Part shown: piece after piece, positions 1-37,678 of the stretch
Position numbering within the stretch: position 1 is the first letter of the stretch
How the letters are laid out: each line of letters begins with the position of its first letter
Source of the DNA: a virus
Lineage: Duplodnaviria > Heunggongvirae > Uroviricota > Caudoviricetes
Virus record (IMG/VR): IMGVR_UViG_2565956727_000002
Direction: 5' to 3' (one strand)
Length of the DNA stretch: 46,604 bases
The notes under the pieces: model-generated
Seen by the model: the letters and a program-made list of their open reading frames with translations, nothing else
The model's database searches: none
What the model was told of the DNA's origin: nothing
Position numbers and translations under genes: made by a program

Positions 1-1284
1 TTACAGACTTCTGGAAGGTTGCACAGCTCTTACAACACGCGGTTGATCTTCCGCAGCGTCTTCCAGCGCACTTAAATCACGGTCTTTCACTTCTGGCATT
101 TTCAGCGCAGAGATTAAACCAATCACTGAATATGCCATGATCATAATGGCGATCGGATACCAGGATTCCGTCATGGTGCAGAAAATACCCGCCAGGATAG
201 GACCAAAACCGGAAGCGATAAGACCACCAATTTCTTTAGAAATGGCCATCCGGGTAAAGCGGTTTTTACAGCCGAACATTTCTGCCATGGTAATGTTTTC
301 CAGAGCAAATAATCCCAGCACCGCACAGTTATGAATCACAATCAGTGCAACCATAATGGTGCTCGGGGCATAGCTTTTATCTACAATGATAGAAAGCATT
401 GGCCATGCCAGCACAATCGCGGAGGTATTCATAATAATATACGGGATCCGGCGACCAATTTTATCGGATAACCAACCAAGGAACGGAATGGTCATAAAGC
501 CGAGAATCGAACTAATCATCAATGCATCTGTTGGAATTGCTTTGTTAAACAATAACGTCTGCACTAAATAGCCTGCAAGGAAAGTCTGAATTAACCCGGA
601 GTTACCCGCCTGACCAAAACGCAGCCCTGTTGCCAGCCAGAAGGATTTGCTCTGGAACATGCTACCAGCAGGTGCAGGTTTTGCTGTGGGTTGGTTGCTG
701 TCATTAACCTTCTCAAAGACCGGGCTTTCTTTCAGATTCATACGTAACCAGATAGCAAAGACCATCACGACAACGCTCGCCAGGAACGGTATACGCCATC
801 CCCACGCCAGCAGTTCCTCTTTACTGAGAATGAAGAACATAAAGGCCCAGATTGCCGTTGCGCTCAAGGTTCCGCAGTTAGTTCCCATAGCTACAAATGA
901 GGAGATAATTCCGCGCTTACCTTTTGGTGCATATTCCGCCAGCATCGTACCGGCACCGGAAATTTCCGCACCTGCACCCAACCCCTGAATAATACGCAGC
1001 GTCACCAGCAAGATGGGGGCAAAAACACCAATCTGTGCATAGGTCGGTAACACACCAATTAAGGTGGTACAGATCCCCATCATGGTGATGGTAATAAAGA
1101 GCACTTTTTTACGCCCTATTCTGTCGCCCATTTTGCCGAAAATAAATGCTCCGACAATACGCGCCACATAACCTGCACCGTAGGTTCCCATTGCCAAAAT
1201 TAACGCCATTGCCGTTGATGATTCAGGAAAAAATATTTCATGAAACACTAACGCTGCGCCGAGCGAATATAACTGGAAATCCAT
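1..1284 (-). CDS. ydfJ: MFS family inner-membrane transporter (YdfJ-like); N-terminus appears short for an MFS protein, consistent with truncation by prophage insertion
   Basis: 427-aa ORF with multiple hydrophobic helices and the MFS loop motif G-x-x-GDRIGRKK near the N-terminus; recognised as YdfJ from memory of E. coli. Confidence 0.85.
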   Translation of the reverse strand: MDFQLYSLGAALVFHEIFFPESSTAMALILAMGTYGAGYVARIVGAFIFGKMGDRIGRKKVLFITITMMGICTTLIGVLPTYAQIGVFAPILLVTLRIIQGLGAGAEISGAGTMLAEYAPKGKRGIISSFVAMGTNCGTLSATAIWAFMFFILSKEELLAWGWRIPFLASVVVMVFAIWLRMNLKESPVFEKVNDSNQPTAKPAPAGSMFQSKSFWLATGLRFGQAGNSGLIQTFLAGYLVQTLLFNKAIPTDALMISSILGFMTIPFLGWLSDKIGRRIPYIIMNTSAIVLAWPMLSIIVDKSYAPSTIMVALIVIHNCAVLGLFALENITMAEMFGCKNRFTRMAISKEIGGLIASGFGPILAGIFCTMTESWYPIAIMIMAYSVIGLISALKMPEVKDRDLSALEDAAEDQPRVVRAVQPSRSL

Positions 1285-2069
1285 AATTCACAGGTGTTTT
1301 TTCCCATCCTGTGGTTTCCTTGGCGTTTTCTAGGTTTTTTCAGATAGTTGCATTTTTTAAAAAGCATCCTAAGTTCGATCTCAGTGTCTATCTGGGGCCT
1401 ATTTCTGTCCCATATATGCCCCAAAAAAACTCCCCAACAGATAAGTAGTTTTTTCATGGATTTATGCGTAAAATCAAGAACGGCTGGAAATCATTCAATA
1501 CTCACACTATCGAAAAATTTACCAGCCAACCGCAGCACGTTCTTGCATAAGGCGTGTCTGCGGTTTTTCAACTATTCAGATACATCACTCCCATCACATT
1601 CATTCCTCCGCATCAAAGGCATATAGGCTATATCACCTTGATATTTTTCTTTTTCAGATAAAAACTGTTATCTATGTATACTTTTAAACCCAATCCGTGT
1701 AGAGTCTCTGCATAAGATAGTTTGCAGTTGCCGCTTCAGCTTGCGCCATAAACCGCCTGATTTTTGCTGCCACCTGTTAGCATTCCTGTATACCTGAAAC
1801 GACAATGTTTATCTACGAACTTTAAGAACACCCAAGATAAAAATTGTCAACTATATCATATATAACACATTACTAATTCGAGGCTATATGAACAGCATAC
1901 TGATAATCACATCTCTCCTTATCATATTCAGCATTTTTAGTCATGCCCTAATAAAATTAGGGATTGGCATATCCAATAACCCAGACAAAACCGATGTATA
2001 AGTCAACATATCCTGAATCAGACATACAATATCGCAATGAAAATCAATAATATTTTAAGGAATATCTTC

Positions 2070-2303
2070 ATGAAATCAAAAGACACCCTAAAGTGGTTCC
2101 CTGCGCAGCTTCCTGAAGTAAGAATTATCCTAGGGGATGCTGTAGTGGAAGTAGCAAAACAGGGAAGACCTATCAATACCAGAACATTGCTTGATTACAT
2201 TGAAGGAAACATAAAGAAAAAATCATGGCTGGATAACAAAGAATTATTACAAACAGCGATATCAGTTCTTAAAGACAACCAAAATTTAAATGGTAAAATG
2301 TAA
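2070..2303 (+). CDS. ydfK: small cold-shock-induced protein YdfK/YnaE family
   Basis: ORF 2037..2303; internal ATG at 2070 preceded by AAGGAA gives a 77-aa product MKSKDTLKWFPAQLPEV... matching my recollection of YdfK. Confidence 0.75.
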   Translation: MKSKDTLKWFPAQLPEVRIILGDAVVEVAKQGRPINTRTLLDYIEGNIKKKSWLDNKELLQTAISVLKDNQNLNGKM

Positions 2304-2619
2304 TATAATAAACTTACTTTTTTATCATTTTTCCACTTTAACAACATTTTGCTCCACTTTTCCACGACCAAACAACTTGAAATCTGGTTAAAATAACACG
2401 CAACACTATTCTTCTTCCTTGAGTCCGCCCGGAACTCGAAAAACAAACCGAGTTAAAGCCATTTTTCACAAAATCGATTTTGGATCTCACCAAAATTACG
2501 GGGTTGCATACGCATTCGTTTATTTTCGAACGTGTACATACAAATATGCACAAAAATAATCATAATTATTTTCTGAGATGCATTATGATATGAACACCAA
2601 TTTCGTATAGAGTCTCACT

Positions 2620-3210
2620 ATGTCTCGAATTTTTGCTTACTGTCGGATATCAACGCTGGATCAGACCACCGAAAATCAACGCCGGGAAATCGAAAGTGCA
2701 GGTTTTAAAATCAAACCTCAGCAAATAATCGAAGAACACATTAGCGGCTCAGCAGCAACCAGTGAGCGTCCTGGTTTTAACCGGTTGCTTGCTCGCCTGA
2801 AATGTGGTGATCAATTGATTGTGACAAAACTGGATCGCCTTGGTTGTAATGCAATGGATATCAGGAAAACAGTGGAACAACTGACCGAAACAGGTATCAG
2901 AGTGCATTGCTTAGCATTGGGTGGCATTGACCTGACCAGTCCAACAGGAAAAATGATGATGCAAGTAATTTCAGCAGTCGCTGAATTTGAACGAGACCTT
3001 TTACTTGAACGCACTCATTCCGGGATAGTAAGAGCCCGCGGCGCAGGGAAACGTTTTGGTCGACCACCTGTGTTAAATGAAGAACAGAAACAGGTGGTAT
3101 TCGAACGAATTAAGTCAGGTGTAAGTATAAGTGCCATTGCCCGGGAATTCAAAACCTCGCGGCAAACCATTTTAAGAGCCAAAGCAAAACTTCAGACACC
3201 TGACATATAA
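2620..3210 (+). CDS. pin: serine recombinase, DNA invertase Pin/Gin/Hin family
   Basis: 196 aa; N-terminal catalytic motif YCRISTLDQ (active-site Ser), resolvase core and C-terminal HTH; typical size for Pin. Confidence 0.9.
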
Positions 3211-3481
3211 AAAATAATCTCGGTGTGAGATGCTTTACGTCTTCCAAGCCCCCTTCCTTGCCGTAAATGGAAAGATACATCTAATTATAGAATTTATATG
3301 TTTTACCCTACGGCAGTGCTGGCCATTCAATATCCGGTACTACTGATGTATTAACACGGTTCAGCAACACCCGATACTTTTTCCAGACTTCCAGCAACGA
3401 AGTTTCTTCCTCCGTTGCGATTTCCAGCTCAACAACAGTCTGAACGTACCAGGAACAGCCTCCTTCAGGGCTTGAAGGATA

Positions 3482-6400
3482 TCAATGTTCGCTTCCTGTT
3501 AACTGCCCGACAAGTGCAACCAGTTCGCTTACCTGATTTTCCAGAGTGCGGATCCGGGTGCCTGCTGTTGCCAGATTTTTACGTAGCGTTATGTTTTCCT
3601 CTTCCAGCGCGGTAACGCGACCATCTGTTTCACGGGCGACCTGAACAAGTAACCCCGTCACGGCGGCGTAGTCAACATTCAGATAACGTGTTTCTTCACG
3701 TAATTCATTGCCGTCAACCGTTGGTCCCTGCAACTCTTCACCGTAATGAGTAAACGATCCCACAGCTTCTGGTATCGCCTCCATTACTTCCTGTGCAATA
3801 ACGCCAGCATAAGGCATCCCGTTTTCCCTGAGCGTGTAGGTGTATCCGTTCATTTTACGGATTGCTTTCGTCGCGTCGCTGATAACGAGAATATCGTCTT
3901 TAAGGTCGCGGTCTGATGACTGATTCAGCGTTGTGCAATTAATAGCGCCATTTACATCAAACAACTGGCCTGCTGACGTTTTTTGCGCATAAAACAGATA
4001 CGCAGCAGACGTTCCAACCTCAAAAACGTTTTGTCGATCACTTGATCCCCATACTTTTGCGGCAAATGATAGTTCTGTATTACCTAAGTTCTGTAAAACA
4101 AAACGATTGCCAGTCCCTGTTTGTTTTGTAAGAGTTAAATCAACAGTTGAATTAACCTCATCCTTGTTGATAGTGAGCGCCTGCGCTTTAGCCCCGTTAA
4201 CAGCACCTGTTTTGAGTTGAACCGCGCCGTCATTACCATTTAACAGTATCTCAGCTCCGCTAAAGAAATTTTTTAGCGACAGCATCTTACTTACGCCGAC
4301 TGATGAACCCAACGCCCACGCGAGAGAATTACCGGTGCTATCAAACCCACGTACAAAGCAATCCATTTTGCTATAGTCTGACGTGCTTCCAAGGACATCA
4401 ATTCGCCCTCCGCCAGATTTTACCGGGTTAGATGTGGTTAATGACCTGACAGCAAGATCGGTAGATGAATTGAGATCGTCTACTGTTAGTAATTTCTTCC
4501 ATTCCTGCGTCGTTCCATTTTCAATTGTTCTTCCCCAAAAACCGGAATTGCGGCCTCCGAACTGCACAGCATAATTTTTACTAAATTGAACATGAATGCC
4601 GCCAAGAACCATAGAACCTGCCGGGCCGTTTGTACTGCCTGCAATTGGTATAAATTTATTAATGTTATCAGTATGCTGCGTGTTCCAGTCTCGTCCTGTT
4701 TTTGTAAGCAGTCCTAATGTCGTGTCGAGCGCTTCGGTTAAAGTAAGGTTTTTAAATTTAACTGCGCTACTTTCGCCAAGACTTAAGTTGTTTCGCGCAT
4801 CTTCTACTGTTGTCGCACCTGTACCTCCTTGCCCAACAGCTAATGGCAACCAGCCAGTGCCATTATGACAACCCCACAAACCAGATTTGGAAACCTGTAA
4901 GCGTGGTGCGCCTGAAGAATACGTAGAATATACGTAAGTTGTTTCTTTTCCCTCTTCAACCCTTTCTGTTGATACATCTCTCTTCCATTCAGACCAGGTA
5001 CCGCTTCCTCCTTCATATATTCGTCTATAAGTAATTCCCGGATTATTATAAGGGTAGTACACCTGAACGCAGGAAGAAGCAGTGTTGGCTCTCGTTTGGA
5101 GCACTATTAAAGCGCCCGCCAGACCGATTGGGTAATTTAATTCTTCTGTTGCGTAAGCGCTCGTTGGTTGTTGATAGAAACCAGAATATTCACCGGTAAG
5201 GGTGTTTAGGTCAGTATTAGCAAGGCCAGCTTTTTGCTCATACATTACCCGCAAGTTCGCACGTGCTTGCTCGATAGTTCTTCCACCAGTACCGCCCTGG
5301 GCTAAACCTAACGGAGACCATTGTCCAGAAGAAGAATCATAAACCCCCCAACTCCCGTTAGTATGGATTTCAAAGAAACGATCACCAGTTGGACCATACA
5401 TACGAGTTGTTGATTCATTTTGACCAAAGCGGCTTAATTCATCTCTGCGGGTATGACGTATCCATTGCGGGCCAGAACTTTGGCTGTAAATGTACGAATA
5501 CAATGATTTTGTATCTGAACCAACAAATAGACCGGAATATCTTTTTGTTGACACTTCTGATCTAACTATATAACCAGAAATAAGATTATCACCGGCACTA
5601 GACGCTACTGATGGATAACCTTTCGCTGAGATGTAAATCCTGACAAATCCAATATAACCTGATGGCTCAACAGAGATATCAGTGCAGGTCATGGCAACTT
5701 CACCAAGACCGATATTATCGCCAACAATTACTTGCGCCTGGTTGCGATAATTAAGTGCGTCCGCCGCAGATTTCGCCGCGTTTGTTTCACTGGATTTAGC
5801 ATTAGTTTCGCTGGCTTTAGCGTTGGTTTCGCTGCTCTTTGCTGCTGCCTCGCTATTTTTCGCGTTGGTTTCTGATTTTTTGGCTGCTGTCGCGGAGTTT
5901 GCTGATGCAGTTTGTGAGTCTGCTGCCGCCTGTGCGCTGTTATCCGCATTCGTCTCAGACGTTTTTGCGGCCTTCGCGGAATTTCCTGCCGCCGTTGCCG
6001 AGGAAGCTGCACTACTGGCACTTGATGATGCGTTCGTTTCTGATGATTTCGCTGCCTCTTTTGAGGCCGCCGCATCCCGGGCTGAGGTGGCAGCTTCTGA
6101 CGCTTTCGTGGTCGCGGTGGATGCAGAAGTGGCTGCAGATTTTTGTGACGCTGCAGCATTCGTTTCTGACGTTTTCGCCGCACCGGCACTGGTAGCCGCC
6201 GCGCTTTTTGAGGACTCTGCAGCGGCAGCACTTTTTGATGCTTCAGTAGCCTTTGTTGATGCCGTTCCTGCGCTGGAAGACGCTGACTGAGCCGACGTCG
6301 CGGCCTGCCCGGCTGATGTGCTGGCTGCACGTGCTGAGCCTGCAGCATCAGTCGCATGGGTTGCCGCCTCACGGGCTGATGTGCCGGCATCGCTGGCTGA

Positions 6401-6793
6401 CTTCTTCGCGGCTGCCGTGTCCTGTGCCACTGCGGACGCGTTACGCGCCACCTCTTCCACCATCAGTTCAAAGCGGCGCAGTGCCTCCGGACGGGCATCA
6501 TCCTCCGTCATGGCACCGAGAAAATCATTCAGCGTACCCGGTTGTGAGTCTTCATACACGGTGATGGTCCCGGCATGCGATGGCGGGAAGCCTTCCACCA
6601 TCAGAATAACGCTGTACTGACCGTACTCAACGTCCATGCTGTAACGCCCGGCTTCATCCGGATTTTCTGAGGCCACCGTGTTCACCACCACCGTGGTGCT
6701 GTTACGTTTTGCTTTCAGCTGGATTGTGCAGTTCTGTACCGGTTTACCTGCACCGTCTTTCAGTACACCTGAAATCTTTACTGCCATATTCAC
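3482..6793 (-). CDS. stf: side tail fibre protein (lambda Stf-like) with C-terminal intramolecular chaperone (peptidase S74-like) domain
   Basis: N-terminus MAVKISGVLKDGAGKPVQNCTIQLKA... is lambda Stf-like; long Ala/Ser/Thr-rich SETNA repeat region; C-terminal ~150 aa resembles the self-cleaving chaperone domain of endosialidase/T5 L-shaped fibre; true start probably at MAVK (6787). Confidence 0.85.
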   Translation of the reverse strand: MNMAVKISGVLKDGAGKPVQNCTIQLKAKRNSTTVVVNTVASENPDEAGRYSMDVEYGQYSVILMVEGFPPSHAGTITVYEDSQPGTLNDFLGAMTEDDARPEALRRFELMVEEVARNASAVAQDTAAAKKSASDAGTSAREAATHATDAAGSARAASTSAGQAATSAQSASSSAGTASTKATEASKSAAAAESSKSAAATSAGAAKTSETNAAASQKSAATSASTATTKASEAATSARDAAASKEAAKSSETNASSSASSAASSATAAGNSAKAAKTSETNADNSAQAAADSQTASANSATAAKKSETNAKNSEAAAKSSETNAKASETNAKSSETNAAKSAADALNYRNQAQVIVGDNIGLGEVAMTCTDISVEPSGYIGFVRIYISAKGYPSVASSAGDNLISGYIVRSEVSTKRYSGLFVGSDTKSLYSYIYSQSSGPQWIRHTRRDELSRFGQNESTTRMYGPTGDRFFEIHTNGSWGVYDSSSGQWSPLGLAQGGTGGRTIEQARANLRVMYEQKAGLANTDLNTLTGEYSGFYQQPTSAYATEELNYPIGLAGALIVLQTRANTASSCVQVYYPYNNPGITYRRIYEGGSGTWSEWKRDVSTERVEEGKETTYVYSTYSSGAPRLQVSKSGLWGCHNGTGWLPLAVGQGGTGATTVEDARNNLSLGESSAVKFKNLTLTEALDTTLGLLTKTGRDWNTQHTDNINKFIPIAGSTNGPAGSMVLGGIHVQFSKNYAVQFGGRNSGFWGRTIENGTTQEWKKLLTVDDLNSSTDLAVRSLTTSNPVKSGGGRIDVLGSTSDYSKMDCFVRGFDSTGNSLAWALGSSVGVSKMLSLKNFFSGAEILLNGNDGAVQLKTGAVNGAKAQALTINKDEVNSTVDLTLTKQTGTGNRFVLQNLGNTELSFAAKVWGSSDRQNVFEVGTSAAYLFYAQKTSAGQLFDVNGAINCTTLNQSSDRDLKDDILVISDATKAIRKMNGYTYTLRENGMPYAGVIAQEVMEAIPEAVGSFTHYGEELQGPTVDGNELREETRYLNVDYAAVTGLLVQVARETDGRVTALEEENITLRKNLATAGTRIRTLENQVSELVALVGQLTGSEH

Positions 6794-6798
6794 CCCAC

Positions 6799-6824
6799 AA
6801 AAAAGCCCGCCTGAACCGGCGGGC
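6799..6824 (-). terminator. putative rho-independent terminator downstream of lom
   Basis: GC-rich hairpin gcccgcc-tgaac-cggcgggc followed on the minus strand by a T-run. Confidence 0.5.
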
Positions 6825-6851
6825 TGTCATAACACTGTGTTACCTGGCTAA

Positions 6852-7451
6852 TCAGAATTTATAACCGACACCCACGATGAAACCGTCAGTGCGCCAGTCA
6901 CCACTGCCGGAGCCTTCATAAGCAATATCAATGGCCACGGATTCGGTCGGGTTAAACTGCACGCCAGCTCCCCACGCCAGAGACGTGTTGCTGTGGCGAG
7001 CGTCATCACTTCCGGTCAGCACGTCGTGCGTTTTCCCCTTGTTGTCAATTACGCGGAGATAATCCCCGGAGAAAGTCGACACACGGCTGTAAGCCACACC
7101 CGCCATCGCATACGCGCTGAACCATTCATTCACGCGCACAGACGGCCCCGCCATTACGCTGAACCAGCGGTTACGAACGGAATCTTCATGCCAGCGGGTA
7201 TCGCTGTAATGGGTCAGCTGGCGATTCTTGTCTCCTGCATAGCTGAATGACGTCACCAGCCCCAGCGTATCCGTAAACTCATAACGGTATTTCACGTTAA
7301 TCCCGTTCAGATCATCACTGCCGGGAACGTTGGTCCGGGCATGAAGATACCCCGCGCTCAGCGTGGACTGATGTTCAGACGCCCATGCAGGCGCACCGGA
7401 TACGGCCAGACAAATGGCTGCGGACAAAATGGCGGCACAAACTTTACGCAT
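6852..7451 (-). CDS. lom: outer-membrane beta-barrel protein Lom (Ail/Lom family)
   Basis: 199 aa with signal peptide, alternating beta-strand pattern and C-terminal aromatic residue (...GVGYKF); position between J and stf as in lambda. Confidence 0.9.
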   Translation of the reverse strand: MRKVCAAILSAAICLAVSGAPAWASEHQSTLSAGYLHARTNVPGSDDLNGINVKYRYEFTDTLGLVTSFSYAGDKNRQLTHYSDTRWHEDSVRNRWFSVMAGPSVRVNEWFSAYAMAGVAYSRVSTFSGDYLRVIDNKGKTHDVLTGSDDARHSNTSLAWGAGVQFNPTESVAIDIAYEGSGSGDWRTDGFIVGVGYKF

Positions 7452-7481
7452 AATTACCTCTCGCTTTTCTGCAATAAAAAA

Positions 7482-7505
7482 GGCGTCATTCCTGACGCCA
7501 TTTAT
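7482..7505 (-). terminator. putative rho-independent terminator downstream of J
   Basis: hairpin ggcgtca-ttcc-tgacgcc followed on the minus strand by TTTTTTATT. Confidence 0.45.
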
Positions 7506-7521
7506 TGGGGTTATAAATATT

Positions 7522-10500
7522 TCAACGAATACTGATGCCGGAAGCCGCTTTTTTGGTCACAATCACCGTACAGTCGGTGATATTGCCTGCCCCCTGATTG
7601 CCTTTCTGGAAAATCTTAAACTCCAGAGTGACGCTACCACCACCACTAGGCATATCAATAACTGCACTGTAACTACCGGGAATGGCCCCTTTAGTTTCTC
7701 TGGATGCGATTAATACGCCGTTTTTGCGAACTTCAAAACCATAACCCGTGTATCGCGTGCCTCCTGGGTTATTTCCGCTCCCCGGATCGTCATACGCTAT
7801 ACCGTTAAAAATAATGGGCGGAATAATAATCTGGCGGTCAAAGTTATGATCATCGCTGATGGTGACTGTAACCGTACCGTCTGGTGTTTCCGTGTTACCC
7901 CACGTACCGACTTTTTTCGGGAAGGCTTTTGATACAGCTTTAACGAAATCCCCTCTGACCTGGGTCGCCTCCAGCATGCCCTTAATCGTACAGTTCTGGT
8001 TAATCGTGACATTGTTGAGCGTTCCTGAGTTCGCATTCACACTGCCACTGATATCCGCATTTTTAGCGGTCAGCTTTCCGTCTGATGTCAGGGAAAATAC
8101 CGGAGGACTGCCACCACTGGTAATGGTGGGGGCCGTCAGGCGCTTCAGGAACACGTCGTTCATGAATATCTGATTGCCCTGCGCCACAAACATCGGCGTT
8201 TCATTCCCGTTTGCCGGGTCAATAAACGCGATACGGTTAGCGGCAACCAGAAACTGGCTCAGCTTGCCTTCCTCCGTGTCCTCCATGCTGAGGCCAATAC
8301 CCGCGACATAATGTTTGCCGTCTTTGGTCTGCTCAATTTTGACGCCCCACATGGCATTCCATTTATCGTTAGCGTCCTTCCACTCTTTCGAAAACTCATC
8401 CAGTCTGCTGGCGTTATCCTCCGTCAGCTCGACTTTTTCCAGCAGCTCCTTGCCGAGATGGGATTCGGTTATCTTGCCTTTGAAAAAATCCAGGTAACCT
8501 TCCGCATCATCGCTCGCCCGACCGACGGCCTCCACGAATGCCGATTTGCCAACGGTGTTCACACTGCGGATATAAAAGTAATAATCATGGCCCGGTTTGA
8601 TATTGATACTGGCGGCTATCCAGTACAGCCCCGTGCCAAGGTAGCGGGCTGTGGTTTCAACCTGCCTGATATCGGTAATCCGCGTTTCCGAGAACCAGAA
8701 CTCAAACTGTACCGTCGGATCATAAACCGCAAGATGCGGCGTGGCGGTTATCTGAAAATAGCCCGGCGTCAGCTCAATCCGCGACGGCGCTGCCGGTGCG
8801 GCAATCCGGAACGATACCGACGCCGGATCGCCCTGCTGCCCCCAGGCATTTGCCGCCCGGACTGTCAGCCTGTAGTTTCCCAACGCCAGTTGCGTGAAGC
8901 GGTATGTGGTTTCCGTCGTCCGGGCCGTGCTGACCAGCCGCTCACTGCCGTCATCCGCTGCCACGGTCAGGCGAAGCATAAAGCTCACGCCCTTCACCAC
9001 CTTCGGCGTGTCCCAGCGGGCCAGTACCTGATACTCCCCGCTGTCTGCGGTGACTTCGGCAGTCAGGTGCTGCACCGCTGGCGGCGTGACACCATTCACC
9101 GTGCCGCTCTGGTCGCCGTCAAAGTGCGCCCCGTTATCCACGATGGCCTCTTTTTCCGGTACATGCTGCACGGCGGTGATGGCATACGTGCCGTCGTCGT
9201 TCTCACGGATACTCACGCAGCGGAACAGGCGCTGGCGCAGCGTCGGCAGCTTCAGCCCCCACACGCTGTATCCGGCAACGCCGTCAGGAACACGGCTCAC
9301 TTTTACCTTCACGCCGTCGGTGACGGACTGGACCTCCACGCTGACCGGATTGCCACTTCCGTCAACCAGGCTTATCAGCGTGGTACCGGAGGATGGCAGA
9401 GTGATTTCACGGTCGAGCGTCAGCGTCCGGGTCTGGCTGTTTACCGCCAGCACGCGCCCGCCGATGCTGATACCGGCATAGTCATCATCACAGATTTCAA
9501 TAACATCGCCCGGCACATGGCGAAGCCCTTCTGCGCCCACGCTGAAGTCCACGGTCTGCGTTTCCAGCAGTTCTGTTTTAATCAGCCACAGCCCGGCGCG
9601 ATGTGCCTGCCCCCGGCTGGTACAGCCAAAGGCATCCATCTTCGTGACGTTACGACCGTAACGGGCAATGGCCTGCGTGTCCTCCACAAGCTCTGTCGCC
9701 GTCTCCCAGCCGTTATTCGGGTCAATCCAGTTCACCTCAACGGCATTATGGCGGTCCTTCAGGGCGCTGAAGCTGTAGCGGAACGGCGCGCCATCATCCG
9801 GCATCACCACATTACTGCGGTTATAGGTCCACACCTTATCTGATGGTCGGTCCTGCACGAACGTCAGCGTCTGCCCGTTCCATACCGGCATACAGCGCAT
9901 CGCCGAGCAGAAATCACTGAGCACATCCCACGCCTTGCGCTGTGTGGTCAGGCACGCATTACAGGTGATGCGCGGCTCCGTGCCGCCAAAGCCGTCCGGC
10001 ACTGACTGGTCGCAGTACTGGCCGATGACATACAGCGCCCATTTGTCCACATCCGCCGCACCAAGACGTTTCCCCATGCCGTAGCGCGGGTGGGTCAGCA
10101 TATCCCACAGACACCAGGCCATGTTGTTGCTGTATGCTGGTTTTAACGTTCCGTCCCAGATACCGCTGTATTGTCGCGTCTGCGGGTTATAGTTCGACGG
10201 CACCTGCAGAATGCGCCCGCGAAGATGATAATTACGACTCACCTGCTGGCTGCCGAACTGCTCCGAGTCCACCTGTACGGCGACCAGTGCAGTGTTCGGG
10301 TAGCACTGTTTCACATCGATGATTTCGGTGTATGACGACCAGAGCGTTTTGTTCTGCAGCTGGTCTGTAGTACTGTCCGGTGTCATCCTGCGCATCCGGA
10401 TATTGAACGGGCGCGGCGGCAGGTTATCCACCACCACCGAGGCCAGATACTGCGAGGTGGTTTTGCCCTTAATGGTGATGTCTTTTTCCGTCACCCAGCC

Positions 10501-10935
10501 ACCGTTACGCTGTATCTGAACCAGCAGGCGGACTTCCGACGGATTCCTGTCTCCCTTTGAGGTGGTTTCCACCAGTGCCTGTACACCGAAGGTAAAGCGC
10601 AGACGGTCGATGTTTGCCGACGTGATGGTCCGGGTGATCGGCGTGTCATATTTCACTTCCGTACCCAGCACAGTCTCGGAGCCGGAGGATTCAAACCCCT
10701 CCGGCGGTGACTGCTCCTGCTCACCTGCCCGGAACACCACCGTGACGCCGGAGATGTTGGTATTCCCCTCATTGTCCAGCACCGGCGTACTGTTCAGCAG
10801 CACGCTTTTTAATCCATCCACCGGACCTTCAACCGGCCCTTCACTGATGGCATCGATCACACTCAGCAGTTGCGTGGACTTCAGGTTGTCCTTCGCTTCG
10901 CGCGGGGTATGCCCCTTACTGCTGCCTTTACCCAT
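7522..10935 (-). CDS. J: tail tip host-specificity protein J (central tail fibre)
   Basis: 1137 aa, lambda J-like throughout (fibronectin-like repeats, C-terminal receptor-binding region); gene order I-J-lom. Confidence 0.95.
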
Positions 10936-27328: not shown

Positions 27329-27557
27329 AGATATTACTATGCCTTTGATAACTCATTACTATTTACTGAAAGCATCCAGAAAACTACACAGATCTTACCA
27401 CGCTAAACCATAACGTCCGGCTTCTCTCACTCCTGAGCCGGACTGCATTGGTTTAATAAAAACCATCAACAATTGTGATTTAGATATTCGGAACCATTCA
27501 AATATAACAAAACCCCGTAAAAACGAGGTTTATGGATAAATTTTATTATTGAATACA

Positions 27558-35902: not shown

Positions 35903-37678
35903 TTACTCTTGCAATTCGATGATCTGCTCTTTACCTAGTAGATGATTAATAATATTTAATACTTTTTCTCTGTTCTGGAAGAATCTTGCTATATAACTAT
36001 TGGGGAAGACTTCCTGTATGTGATTATAAGTATCAGAAGCCAGCTCTATACATTCCTCCAGTGAAACGTTTCGGCTATAAGAGAAGATGTGATTCTCCAC
36101 AGAGGAAACTTCTATTTTATTCATGAGTATGGATATTAAAACATAATTTCCATGAATCATTATTTGATGAATCTGCTTCTGATTTTCCATATCTACTGAT
36201 AGTAGTTTAACTATACTTTCTTGCAATATATCATTTGCTAATCTATAAGCATTTACTTTATTTATTATATCCAAACCGGTAGGACCATTTTCAGCTGGGA
36301 ATACTTTTTCATAAAGACCTCCCCAGCTTTCAAAAAAACGTCCTCTATTTAGTTTTAAGGAAGATATCAATGTTTCATCTTTAGAGGCACACACTAATGC
36401 GTTTAAAGCATCATCAATATCAATGGTATTACCACCTGTCTGGCTGGAGTCTTCTTGCCTGAGTAGTTTGTAGCTATATCCGCCAATAAAGTTTATTTCT
36501 CTTTGTATTCTTTGTTGCTCGGGCCTCTGTGATGAGAAATCTCTTCCAGTAACCCTGTTTTGTGTATTGTTGAATTTAGTGACAGAGGTTAAAAAATCTT
36601 CTTTTGCTGCACTGATAAATCTAATGCTCACCTTGATTAGATCTTTTTTTTCTTCGGGTAAAGAGTTGAACACTTCACCAATAGTGCTTACAGTTTGAGC
36701 TCCATTTATTATACTCAGACTTTTAAAACTAAATAGCCCGTACTTCCTGCTTGTACTTAAGTTGATCATGCTTTCTTCTACATCACTATATACAGCAGTT
36801 ATCCCATTGTTATAGTACCAAAAATTCTCCGGCTTTTCACTTAATGTTTTCTTTATCCCAGAGTTTATGGATGAATTACCGAGGACACTTCTTATATTTT
36901 TCTCGAACAGAGAGTACTTGTACTTTTCCCACCAGTCGTATAGGATCCTTGCGGATATTGTTCCGTATATTGCTTTATAAGGTTCTGCTATCTCTCCATA
37001 ACTTTCAAGGTGAACATTGCTAACATTTATAGATTTTGATCGATCATTAGAAAGACCATCCATTATCACTTGTATACCTGCCGGCTCGAATAGCACTGAA
37101 TACTCATCTCTATTCTCTATATCTTTAAATAATAGAGACCGATTCTGAACCTTTTCCCAAAACTCTATGTCTGATTTTACTTCCTCGCTTGGCTCATGAA
37201 CCCCTGTATATATAAATACACATATACATTTATATGTAAATCCTGAGATTGCTTCAATTATGGAGTCTTTGTTTCTTAAAAACCTTTCGTTAAATGTTGT
37301 AAAGTCGCTGGCTATTACTTTTGCGCATGCGTCTTTGAATCTTCCGAATTCTCTTGTGGTTATAGAACCGTCGCCATTTTTAATATATTTTGACTGAACT
37401 ATTACTATCTTTCTCGAATTTTTATTAACATAAACTGCATCTATCCCGCCATCATCTTTTCCATCGCAGACAGCATTAGCAGCTAACTCAGGGTCTGGTT
37501 CATCACCATACAAGCTGATTGCATGCGCAGCTACACAGCGTGTAATTAGAGTTTCTTTCCTATGCTCTCCTACGGAATTAATATCTTTCATATCAATAAA
37601 AGTTCCGTATATAGACTCTAATTGATTAGTTATGCGTACTAAACCTGCTGTTTGCGTGGCTTTGTCGTACTGGGACAT
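35903..37678 (-). CDS. putative abortive-infection / anti-phage defence protein, AIPR-like, with N-terminal PD-(D/E)xK-like nuclease motif
   Basis: 591 aa in a markedly AT-rich segment; N-terminal DGGIDAVYV...IVIVQSKY nuclease-like motif; central NGAQT motif characteristic of AIPR proteins; own terminator and about 290 bp upstream non-coding region. Confidence 0.6.
   Translation of the reverse strand: MSQYDKATQTAGLVRITNQLESIYGTFIDMKDINSVGEHRKETLITRCVAAHAISLYGDEPDPELAANAVCDGKDDGGIDAVYVNKNSRKIVIVQSKYIKNGDGSITTREFGRFKDACAKVIASDFTTFNERFLRNKDSIIEAISGFTYKCICVFIYTGVHEPSEEVKSDIEFWEKVQNRSLLFKDIENRDEYSVLFEPAGIQVIMDGLSNDRSKSINVSNVHLESYGEIAEPYKAIYGTISARILYDWWEKYKYSLFEKNIRSVLGNSSINSGIKKTLSEKPENFWYYNNGITAVYSDVEESMINLSTSRKYGLFSFKSLSIINGAQTVSTIGEVFNSLPEEKKDLIKVSIRFISAAKEDFLTSVTKFNNTQNRVTGRDFSSQRPEQQRIQREINFIGGYSYKLLRQEDSSQTGGNTIDIDDALNALVCASKDETLISSLKLNRGRFFESWGGLYEKVFPAENGPTGLDIINKVNAYRLANDILQESIVKLLSVDMENQKQIHQIMIHGNYVLISILMNKIEVSSVENHIFSYSRNVSLEECIELASDTYNHIQEVFPNSYIARFFQNREKVLNIINHLLGKEQIIELQE

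Follow-up and report, generated by a model that had tools for sequence, protein, structure and literature searches.

The DNA invertases Gin (phage Mu), Cin (P1), Hin (Salmonella), and PinE (e14) share high mutual identity and are functionally interchangeable; they work with a Fis-dependent recombinational enhancer situated in or close to the 5' portion of the invertase gene. In Tn3-family elements, the res site combines a crossover site with accessory sites that overlap the resolvase promoter, and the resolvase TnpR, when bound at res, represses both tnpA and tnpR. The pin gene described here lies toward one end of a 46,604-nucleotide stretch of DNA from a virus of the Caudoviricetes (IMG/VR record IMGVR_UViG_2565956727_000002); this whole stretch was analyzed and is called the window below. 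The closest described counterparts of this gene are pinR of the Rac prophage and pinQ of the Qin prophage of Escherichia coli K-12. We consider it roughly 80% probable that the encoded protein, Pin, is an orphan PinR/PinQ recombinase, likely derived from a Tn3-family element, that has no substrate in cis and sits beside a side tail-fiber gene (stf) of fixed orientation.

Pin is a PinR/PinQ-type orphan small serine recombinase of the kind encoded at the ends of Rac- and Qin-like lambdoid prophages. Its sequence matches K-12 PinR at every residue and K-12 PinQ at all but two (identity >98% to both), and its gene lies at a prophage end in the context ynfT/ynaM, ydfK/ynaE, pin, tfa. Within this context, ynfT, ydfK, and pin form a conserved end module:

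1888..2001, + strand: ynfT, small protein of the YnaM/YnfT family (FREC5 and K-12 annotation by coordinates; translation)
2070..2303, + strand: ydfK/ynaE-type cold-shock protein gene, directly 5' of pin, as in K-12 Qin and Rac
2620..3210, + strand: pin, small serine recombinase, 196 amino acids, 100% identical to K-12 PinR (WP_000086527.1)
2845..2847, + strand: codon 76 of pin, TGT (Cys), at the position of the catalytic Arg71 of Tn3/gamma-delta resolvase; CGT or CGC (Arg) in the Tn3-type homologues

The K-12 loci and the window also have in common the tfa 3' neighbor, a 97-base pair (bp) spacer after the recombinase gene, Cys76, and the chromosomal site (ydfJ, the Qin site). They differ in that the window prophage is full length whereas K-12 Qin is truncated, and in that tfa in the window is reduced to a 126-bp remnant beside an stf end bearing an S74 domain. 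At a coverage of at least 80%, window positions 2300..3700 are matched in 2,579 of 5,426 complete E. coli genomes; among the matches listed, every one has a recombinase gene together with tfa and ydfK and no alternative cassette, and each is a single collinear piece. The order stf-tfa-pin without a second cassette is likewise found in K-12 Rac, in K-12 Qin, and in the lambdoid phages Turner, Kati, PhiR42_1, and 2H10. The locus is therefore not new in kind: it is a tfa-less variant of the very common, long-annotated PinQ/PinR arrangement.

By full-length protein comparison, the closest relatives of Pin are the resolvases of Tn3-family transposons and not the Gin-type invertases. The Pfam domains of Pin, an N-terminal Resolvase domain (PF00239, E 2.5e-36) and a C-terminal HTH_7 domain (PF02796, E 3.8e-11), are laid out as in invertases and resolvases alike and do not discriminate between them. 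NCBIfam gave only far sub-threshold matches (Mpi, XisF, and CcrB) and no curated family placement. Among solved structures, Gin (105 bits) and gamma-delta resolvase (83 bits) match Pin best. Pin shares fold class, size, and the pairing of a catalytic domain with HTH_7 with Gin, Cin, Hin, and PinE, and its gene similarly lies beside phage tail-fiber genes. However, it is 39% identical to PinE, which places it outside the closely related, interchangeable group, and it further differs from these invertases in the absence of 26-bp gix/pix-type sites and of a cassette, in the opposite direction of its gene relative to the tail-fiber genes, and in the missing equivalent of Arg71.

A protein search returned a large family that is 78–86% identical to Pin over its full length and is represented in 1,671 plasmid records. 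On the examined plasmids of E. coli and Klebsiella, the pin relative is divergent from a Tn3-family transposase gene (DUF4158 and DDE_Tnp_Tn3 domains, confirmed in loci L008, L009, and L010), the transposase gene being frameshifted or truncated in both records. In the Yersinia plasmid pGDT4, the pin relative follows the transposase gene of ISYps3, which has been published as a Tn3-like transposon encoding both a transposase and a resolvase (PMC3297565). Pin thereby falls in a clade whose genes adjoin Tn3-family tnpA. Because Pin and these relatives align almost without difference in the helix-turn-helix (HTH) region, Pin probably shares their DNA specificity. The likeness to the TnpR-type resolvases (ISYps3 on pGDT4; Escherichia and Klebsiella IncF plasmids) extends to the DNA, which is homologous from the middle of an upstream array through the gene and has the same register of half-sites before the ATG. 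Unlike these loci, the window has no transposase gene and no intact res, carries Cys instead of Arg at residue 76, and places the gene in a prophage by the tail-fiber genes. Its DNA homology to Tn3-type elements spans only 2536-2540 to 3249. A tblastn search of the window with two TnpA sequences found no TnpA remnant (best E 0.52; terminal repeats were not searched separately), and pin does not, as judged for tnpA, lie in a tnpA-bearing transposon bounded by terminal inverted repeats. The literature searched held nothing tying pinR or pinQ to resolvases or TnpR.

Six Tn3-type loci, ranging from Escherichia to Methylobacterium (L008, 4886..5000, and equivalents in L009-L013), have a conserved three-part array in the 115 bp before the ATG; the Methylobacterium homologue has 64% identity to query P0014. 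The half-sites of the array, TGTCCGAAA and its complement TTTCGGACA, occur at fixed distances from the ATG (about -115/-98, -75/-52, and -34/-21). The presumed site I is a 26-bp palindrome, TGTCCGAAACCG-NN-CGGTTTCGGACA, at about -115 to -90. Site II is 32 bp in length (about -75 to -44, TGTCCGAAA-N14-TTTCGGACA), and site III consists of two half-sites at about -34 and -21, around a TATAAT box. From this pattern and the general layout of Tn3-family res, we predict that the array is a res site. No description of such a three-part array for the plasmid/Tn3-family resolvase clade was found in the literature searched.

Directly upstream of pin there is no intact res but a decayed copy, which stays in register in the alignment with the Tn3-type loci. 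Its half-site matches are degenerate and follow the same register with a 2-bp offset (-96, -50, and -19):

2507..2532, + strand: site I remnant, 26 bp, CATACGCATTCGTTTATTTTCGAACG; presumed crossover site, decayed (alignment)
2547..2578, + strand: site II remnant, 32 bp, TGCACAAAA-N14-TTTCTGAGA; 5 mismatches at 18 half-site positions against TGTCCGAAA-N14-TTTCGGACA
2584..2609, + strand: possible -10 element of pin, TATGAT (TATAAT in the homologues), then a site III half-site (alignment)

The site I remnant scores -0.9 bits, as against 32.6–37.0 bits for the six intact sites; its gene-proximal 9-bp half-site, TTTCGAACG, matches at 7 of 9 positions and is in register. The promoter-proximal part of the array, which includes the site III half-site TTTCGTATA (2601..2609), is together with the possible -10 element 82% identical to one Tn3-type element. 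TATGAT (2584) is a possible pin promoter by virtue of its conserved position, and it is absent from the listing of a consensus scan. Elsewhere in the window, the best match to an intact site I scores 12.0 bits, within chance (9.9 ± 2.8 in shuffled sequence). The invertase sites pix and gix score -13 to -5 bits on the site I model (pix, -13.1 and -5.4). Between ydfK and the remnant array lies an AT-rich stretch of ~200 bp (2304..2500), which is near-identical in phage Turner and in the Rac and Qin prophages of K-12. It contains short direct repeats (TTTTCCACTTT ... CCACTTTTCCAC), and Rfam gave no match there.

The active site of Pin departs from that of the Tn3-type relatives. The motif LDRLGR of Gin and gamma-delta resolvase reads LDRLGC in Pin, and K-12 PinQ also has Cys76. 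Among the best 120 cluster representatives, this residue is Arg in 114 and Cys in 5. All five Cys clusters are of the E. coli prophage type; they comprise the PinQ/PinR clusters and a second lineage (P0009), which is 85% identical to Pin and also adjoins a tfa gene. Of the six chief catalytic residues of Tn3 resolvase (Y6, R8, S10, D36, R68, and R71), Pin does not have the full set: it has Y7, R9, S11, and R73, with E39 at the D36 position and C76 at the R71 position. E39 is common to the other ten PinQ/TnpR family members aligned. Tn3 resolvase with the substitution R71A or R71K no longer recombines, and its single-strand cleavage is ~1000-fold slower, yet DNA binding is not prevented (PMC2794168). 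By analogy, Cys76 would strongly lower catalysis by Pin. A single pairwise comparison of the two Cys76 lineages gave a ratio of nonsynonymous to synonymous substitution rates (dN/dS) of 0.35, and one of the window pin with the Tn3-type tnpR of L008 gave 0.15; pin is thus not decaying freely.

Some prophage copies carry Arg76, for example L015/P0008. In that E. coli chromosome, 712 bp of the prophage (L015, 4919..5630), made up of the promoter-proximal region and most of pin, are 95.9% identical to a plasmid Tn3-type tnpR. Chimeric pin genes of this kind (P0004-P0008) have prophage-like flanks, with a YnaE-type gene upstream and tfa downstream. The pattern indicates that prophage pin and plasmid resolvase genes undergo gene conversion, which restores Arg76 in the chimeras.

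We searched the window for crossover sites of the invertase type, that is, 26-bp sites of 12-2-12 architecture (...AAACC NN GGTTT...). With up to two mismatches, the core AAACCNNGGTTT occurs 15 times in the window, where 25 occurrences are expected by chance. A position weight matrix was built from pix, gix, and hix, with pix taken from the e14 sites read in K-12; real sites score 28.5–31.9 bits on it, the best 26-mer of the window scores 13.0 bits, and the maximum in shuffled sequence is 12.4 ± 2.1 bits on average. An earlier note on this DNA had pointed to 2300..7000 as the place to look for such sites. This interval has one AAACCNNGGTTT-type match (4740..4751, AAAGTAAGGTTT, 2 mismatches) and a best matrix score of 7.4 bits, nothing above chance; by core search and matrix together, no gix/pix-like site above chance occurs anywhere in the 46.6-kilobase (kb) window. 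Among inverted repeats in 1200..8000, the best pairs are 71–89% complementary over 18–28 nucleotides and lie mostly within coding sequence. A core with one mismatch at 27520 was rejected for its poor flanks (11.0 bits). Two stretches that resemble gix by eye, TTCCTGT by the stf stop (~3495) and AAACCGAG (~2446), had no score in the matrix scan and were dropped.

No pair of inverted 26-bp sites flanks an adjacent segment, and no cassette with alternative tail-fiber C-termini and assembly genes is present, as there is one stf and a tfa remnant only. The suggestions of the earlier note that pin is orphaned, that an invertible cassette is lacking, and that the tail fiber is fixed hold up in these respects. 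Because the prophage lacks crossover sites of both the invertase (gix/pix) and the resolvase type, the neighboring tail-fiber gene is fixed and not controlled by pin, and most likely Pin flips nothing in cis.

The region from pin to stf has been described as a 271-bp noncoding gap followed by the 3' end of a long stf gene with its own intramolecular chaperone domain. Open reading frames (ORFs) and Pfam domains bear out this order, and the gap (3211..3481) is indeed 271 bp long, but it is not plainly noncoding, since 3308..3433 on the - strand encodes the last 41 residues of tfa:

3211..3307, no strand: spacer from the pin stop to the tfa stop, 97 bp, the same length as the pinR-tfaR spacer in K-12 Rac
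3308..3433, - strand: tfa 3' remnant, 126 bp, last 41 codons and stop, TfaR/TfaQ-type (translation; pseudogene in FREC5 according to the Prokaryotic Genome Annotation Pipeline, PGAP)
3482..6793, - strand: stf, side tail-fiber gene, single and in fixed orientation, 1103 amino acids (ORF and Pfam)
3761..3916, - strand: Peptidase_S74 intramolecular chaperone domain of Stf (Pfam; coordinates derived from the ORF)

Stf has a phage_tail_N domain (residues 3-136) and a Peptidase_S74 domain (residues 960-1011; PF13884, E 8.2e-12), and the stf start chosen by PGAP in E. coli strain FREC5 corresponds to window position 6787. PGAP calls the tfa remnant in FREC5 an N-terminally truncated tfa pseudogene, and the remnant is homologous to Turner tfa and to DNA downstream of stf in phage mEp460. 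The stf gene is a mosaic, with a 5' part common to lambdoid stf genes and an mEp460-like 3' part of 1.2 kb. Phage Turner, whose gene order is ydfK-like gene, invertase, full tfa, stf, matches window 1512..3444 at 98.4% identity. Phage mEp460 matches window 3322..4699 at 94.4% identity; it lacks pin but shares with the window both the S74-type stf end and the tfa remnant downstream of it. Farther into stf and beyond, 5720..7995 is 95.6% identical to mEp460 and 5946..7536 is 95.9% identical to Turner. The Turner and mEp460 homologies overlap at 3322..3444, which is where the tfa 3' end is conserved. This is most simply explained by recombination within that stretch, through which an S74-bearing stf 3' end took the place of the former stf end and of most of tfa. 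The exchange would have removed the first ~150 tfa codons and left the 271-bp gap, tfa being cut to a 126-bp remnant because the incoming stf end carries its own S74 chaperone domain. The piece missing in the window is tfa, not an alternative invertible cassette.

Rfam places a full-length match to IS009 (RF02111) at 3342..3542 on the - strand (88.5 bits, below the gathering score of 117; E 4e-20), whose best-matching half coincides with the tfa coding remnant. It was dropped as a small RNA gene on account of the family threshold and the position of its strongest part; some of what the IS009 family covers may be tfa 3' remnants located downstream of prophage tail-fiber genes and not a small RNA. 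Phage Turner has, besides its real tfa, another copy of the conserved tfa 3' end (L001, 70..164; 85% identical) ~2.7 kb away, in direct orientation and within a gene annotated as hypothetical. Such tfa 3' ends seem to be recombination scars scattered in this genome region.

As to origin, the most likely course is that the pin lineage began as a fragment of a Tn3-family transposon, containing part of res together with tnpR, that was captured next to stf-tfa. The gene would thus have moved from transposon to prophage. After capture, the presumed crossover site (site I) would have decayed, the promoter-proximal binding sites would have been partly kept, and the catalytic arginine (Arg71 in Tn3 numbering) would have become Cys76. 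Pin may still bind the retained half-sites and repress its own promoter. More tentatively, and at less than even odds, PinQ and PinR in general could be a captured Tn3-family resolvase, short of its crossover site and of its arginine (R76C), that has been kept as a DNA-binding protein; the P-segment inversion reported for PinQ would then be indirect (via PinE) or due to weak residual activity. If so, these proteins could serve to regulate their own expression, or to interfere with Tn3-type transposons or plasmids that enter the cell with a matching res.

Several points weigh against the conclusion that Pin is an orphan of Tn3 descent without a substrate in cis. The res model covers six loci only, with sites assigned by sequence pattern alone, and of the sites in the invertase matrix, the pix sites alone were read from a sequence record. 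The pin ORF is intact in thousands of genomes, and this together with the low dN/dS argues for a function that may have been kept rather than for plain decay. Finally, Kirigo et al. (2025, PMC12529663) reported that overproduction of K-12 PinQ raises inversion of the e14 P segment, which is 1797 bp in length, from ~30% to ~88%. Judging from PinQ, Pin may keep useful activity in trans, and a target may lie elsewhere in the host genome, beyond the window.

One alternative, which we hold to be doubtful, is that Pin is a domesticated DNA-binding protein. It would repress its own promoter through the site II and III remnants, and it might bind the res of incoming Tn3-type elements, thereby repressing tnpA and tnpR or disturbing cointegrate resolution, or else regulate host genes. 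Repression by TnpR at res in Tn3-family elements offers a precedent. The 82% conservation of the promoter-proximal array and possible -10 element, where the presumed crossover site is not kept, would agree with such a role, as would the conserved HTH region, the dN/dS below 1, and the presence of Cys76 in two prophage lineages with 15% residue divergence. Weaker is a preprint abstract reporting that PinR represses antioxidant genes (10.1101/2022.03.29.486199). However, each retained half-site has 2-3 mismatches, the dN/dS of 0.35 comes from one sequence pair, and the published phenotype of PinQ is ascribed to DNA inversion (PMC12529663).

Unlikely, in our estimate, is that Pin serves as a trans-acting invertase that flips a tail-fiber segment of another prophage (the e14 P segment or a similar one), with the resulting chimeric Stf blocking T2 adsorption. 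This proposal is compatible with the lack of function in cis, as it concerns action elsewhere only, and the passing remark of the earlier note that pin may act in trans has found published support for K-12 PinQ (PMC12529663), which makes it possible for the window Pin, identical to PinR and two residues from PinQ. In that paper, PinQ-driven inversion is reported to block T2 adsorption via a chimeric StfE2, with PinR equivalent, and the effect is lost on deletion of stfP, stfE, or e14; deletion of pinQ lowers survival after T2 infection, and T2 induces pinQ and pinR 14-fold. On the other side, the P segment is locked in a pinE single mutant despite the presence of pinQ and pinR, and PinE is thus required at native expression. 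The passages searched of PMC12529663 describe no catalytic-serine mutant of PinQ and no analysis of its catalytic residues. Pin has Cys at the Arg71 position and a Tn3-like HTH, and pix scores -13.1 and -5.4 bits on the site model of the relatives, for which their own sites reach 32.6–37.0. Given the locked pinE mutant, Cys76, and the mismatch with the predicted DNA specificity, direct catalysis by PinQ at pix seems to us not yet secure; an enzyme weakened 1000-fold could still act under strong overproduction. The e14 P segment with pinE is, moreover, matched at 80% or more in 170 of the 5,426 genomes, as against 2,579 for the pin module, and the P segment is therefore not the general reason why pin is retained.

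Very improbable is the view at the heart of the earlier note, in which Pin is a Gin/Pin-type invertase that formerly flipped a local stf'/tfa' cassette, since lost by deletion. Like gin, cin, and pinE, the gene adjoins tail-fiber genes, Gin is the best solved-structure match, and databases label Pin a "DNA invertase." Yet Pin is 78–86% identical to the Tn3-type relatives and 39% to PinE; searches of the window gave no gix/pix-like site or half-site remnant; and the upstream region aligns with the Tn3-type res-like array, of which it is a decayed copy. The order stf-tfa-pin without a second cassette is the normal state in every relative examined, and pin is convergent with stf/tfa, in contrast to pinE of e14, which is divergent from the invertible P segment. 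A working switch in the window that uses crossover sites unlike the known types is hardly credible: nothing positive speaks for it beyond the fact that site searches find only what is modeled, no notable inverted repeats flank segments near pin, the window and FREC5 are collinear over 46.6 kb, the matches listed across E. coli genomes are single collinear pieces, and according to the authors of PMC12529663, inversions turned up in e14 alone when the complete Qin and Rac sequences were used in BLAST.

The orphan pin thus has its place at the edge of a full-length lambdoid prophage, located at the site that is held by the Qin remnant in K-12. The whole window aligns end to end with E. coli strain FREC5 at 99.85% identity and with zero gaps; because this ungapped alignment runs from the truncated host gene ydfJ to the prophage integrase adjoining rspB, the window is a complete Qin-site prophage. 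Its gene content includes an integrase, an excisionase, dicA/dicB/dicC, and genes for replication, lysis, head, and tail; J, lom, and stf come next, and the series closes at the ydfJ end with pin, ydfK, and ynfT. The remaining features on this side are:

1..1284, - strand: ydfJ, truncated host gene, major facilitator superfamily (MFS) transporter (Pfam MFS_1; "incomplete, missing N-terminus" by PGAP in FREC5); marker of the host/prophage junction on the pin side
6852..7451, - strand: lom, Ail/Lom outer membrane protein (Pfam)
7522..10935, - strand: tip attachment protein J, intact in the window (Pfam and FREC5 annotation)

Of the 69 differences between the window and FREC5, 58 are packed into 2.2 kb of the gene J region (7765..9985), which resembles a recombination patch. 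J is an intact ORF of 1137 codons in the window; the FREC5 copy has an internal stop according to PGAP. Between the replication genes and hokD, at ~35903..37678 on the - strand, transfer of the FREC5 annotation places an AIPR-family (abortive-infection-related) gene, possibly defense cargo unrelated to pin.

An invertase-like gene next to a fixed lambdoid tail fiber is the standard Rac/Qin arrangement, and no missing cassette has to be invoked for it. This gene has been named and modeled as a Gin-type invertase, and the phage-defense mechanism described in 2025 (PMC12529663) builds on that understanding. In light of the kinship with resolvases, a predicted specificity that does not match pix, and the lost arginine, a check of catalysis would strengthen or revise that mechanism. 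The side observations made here provide a testable lead on the true role of PinQ and PinR, and knowing whether these proteins are catalytic would help explain why they are retained in about half of the complete E. coli genomes.

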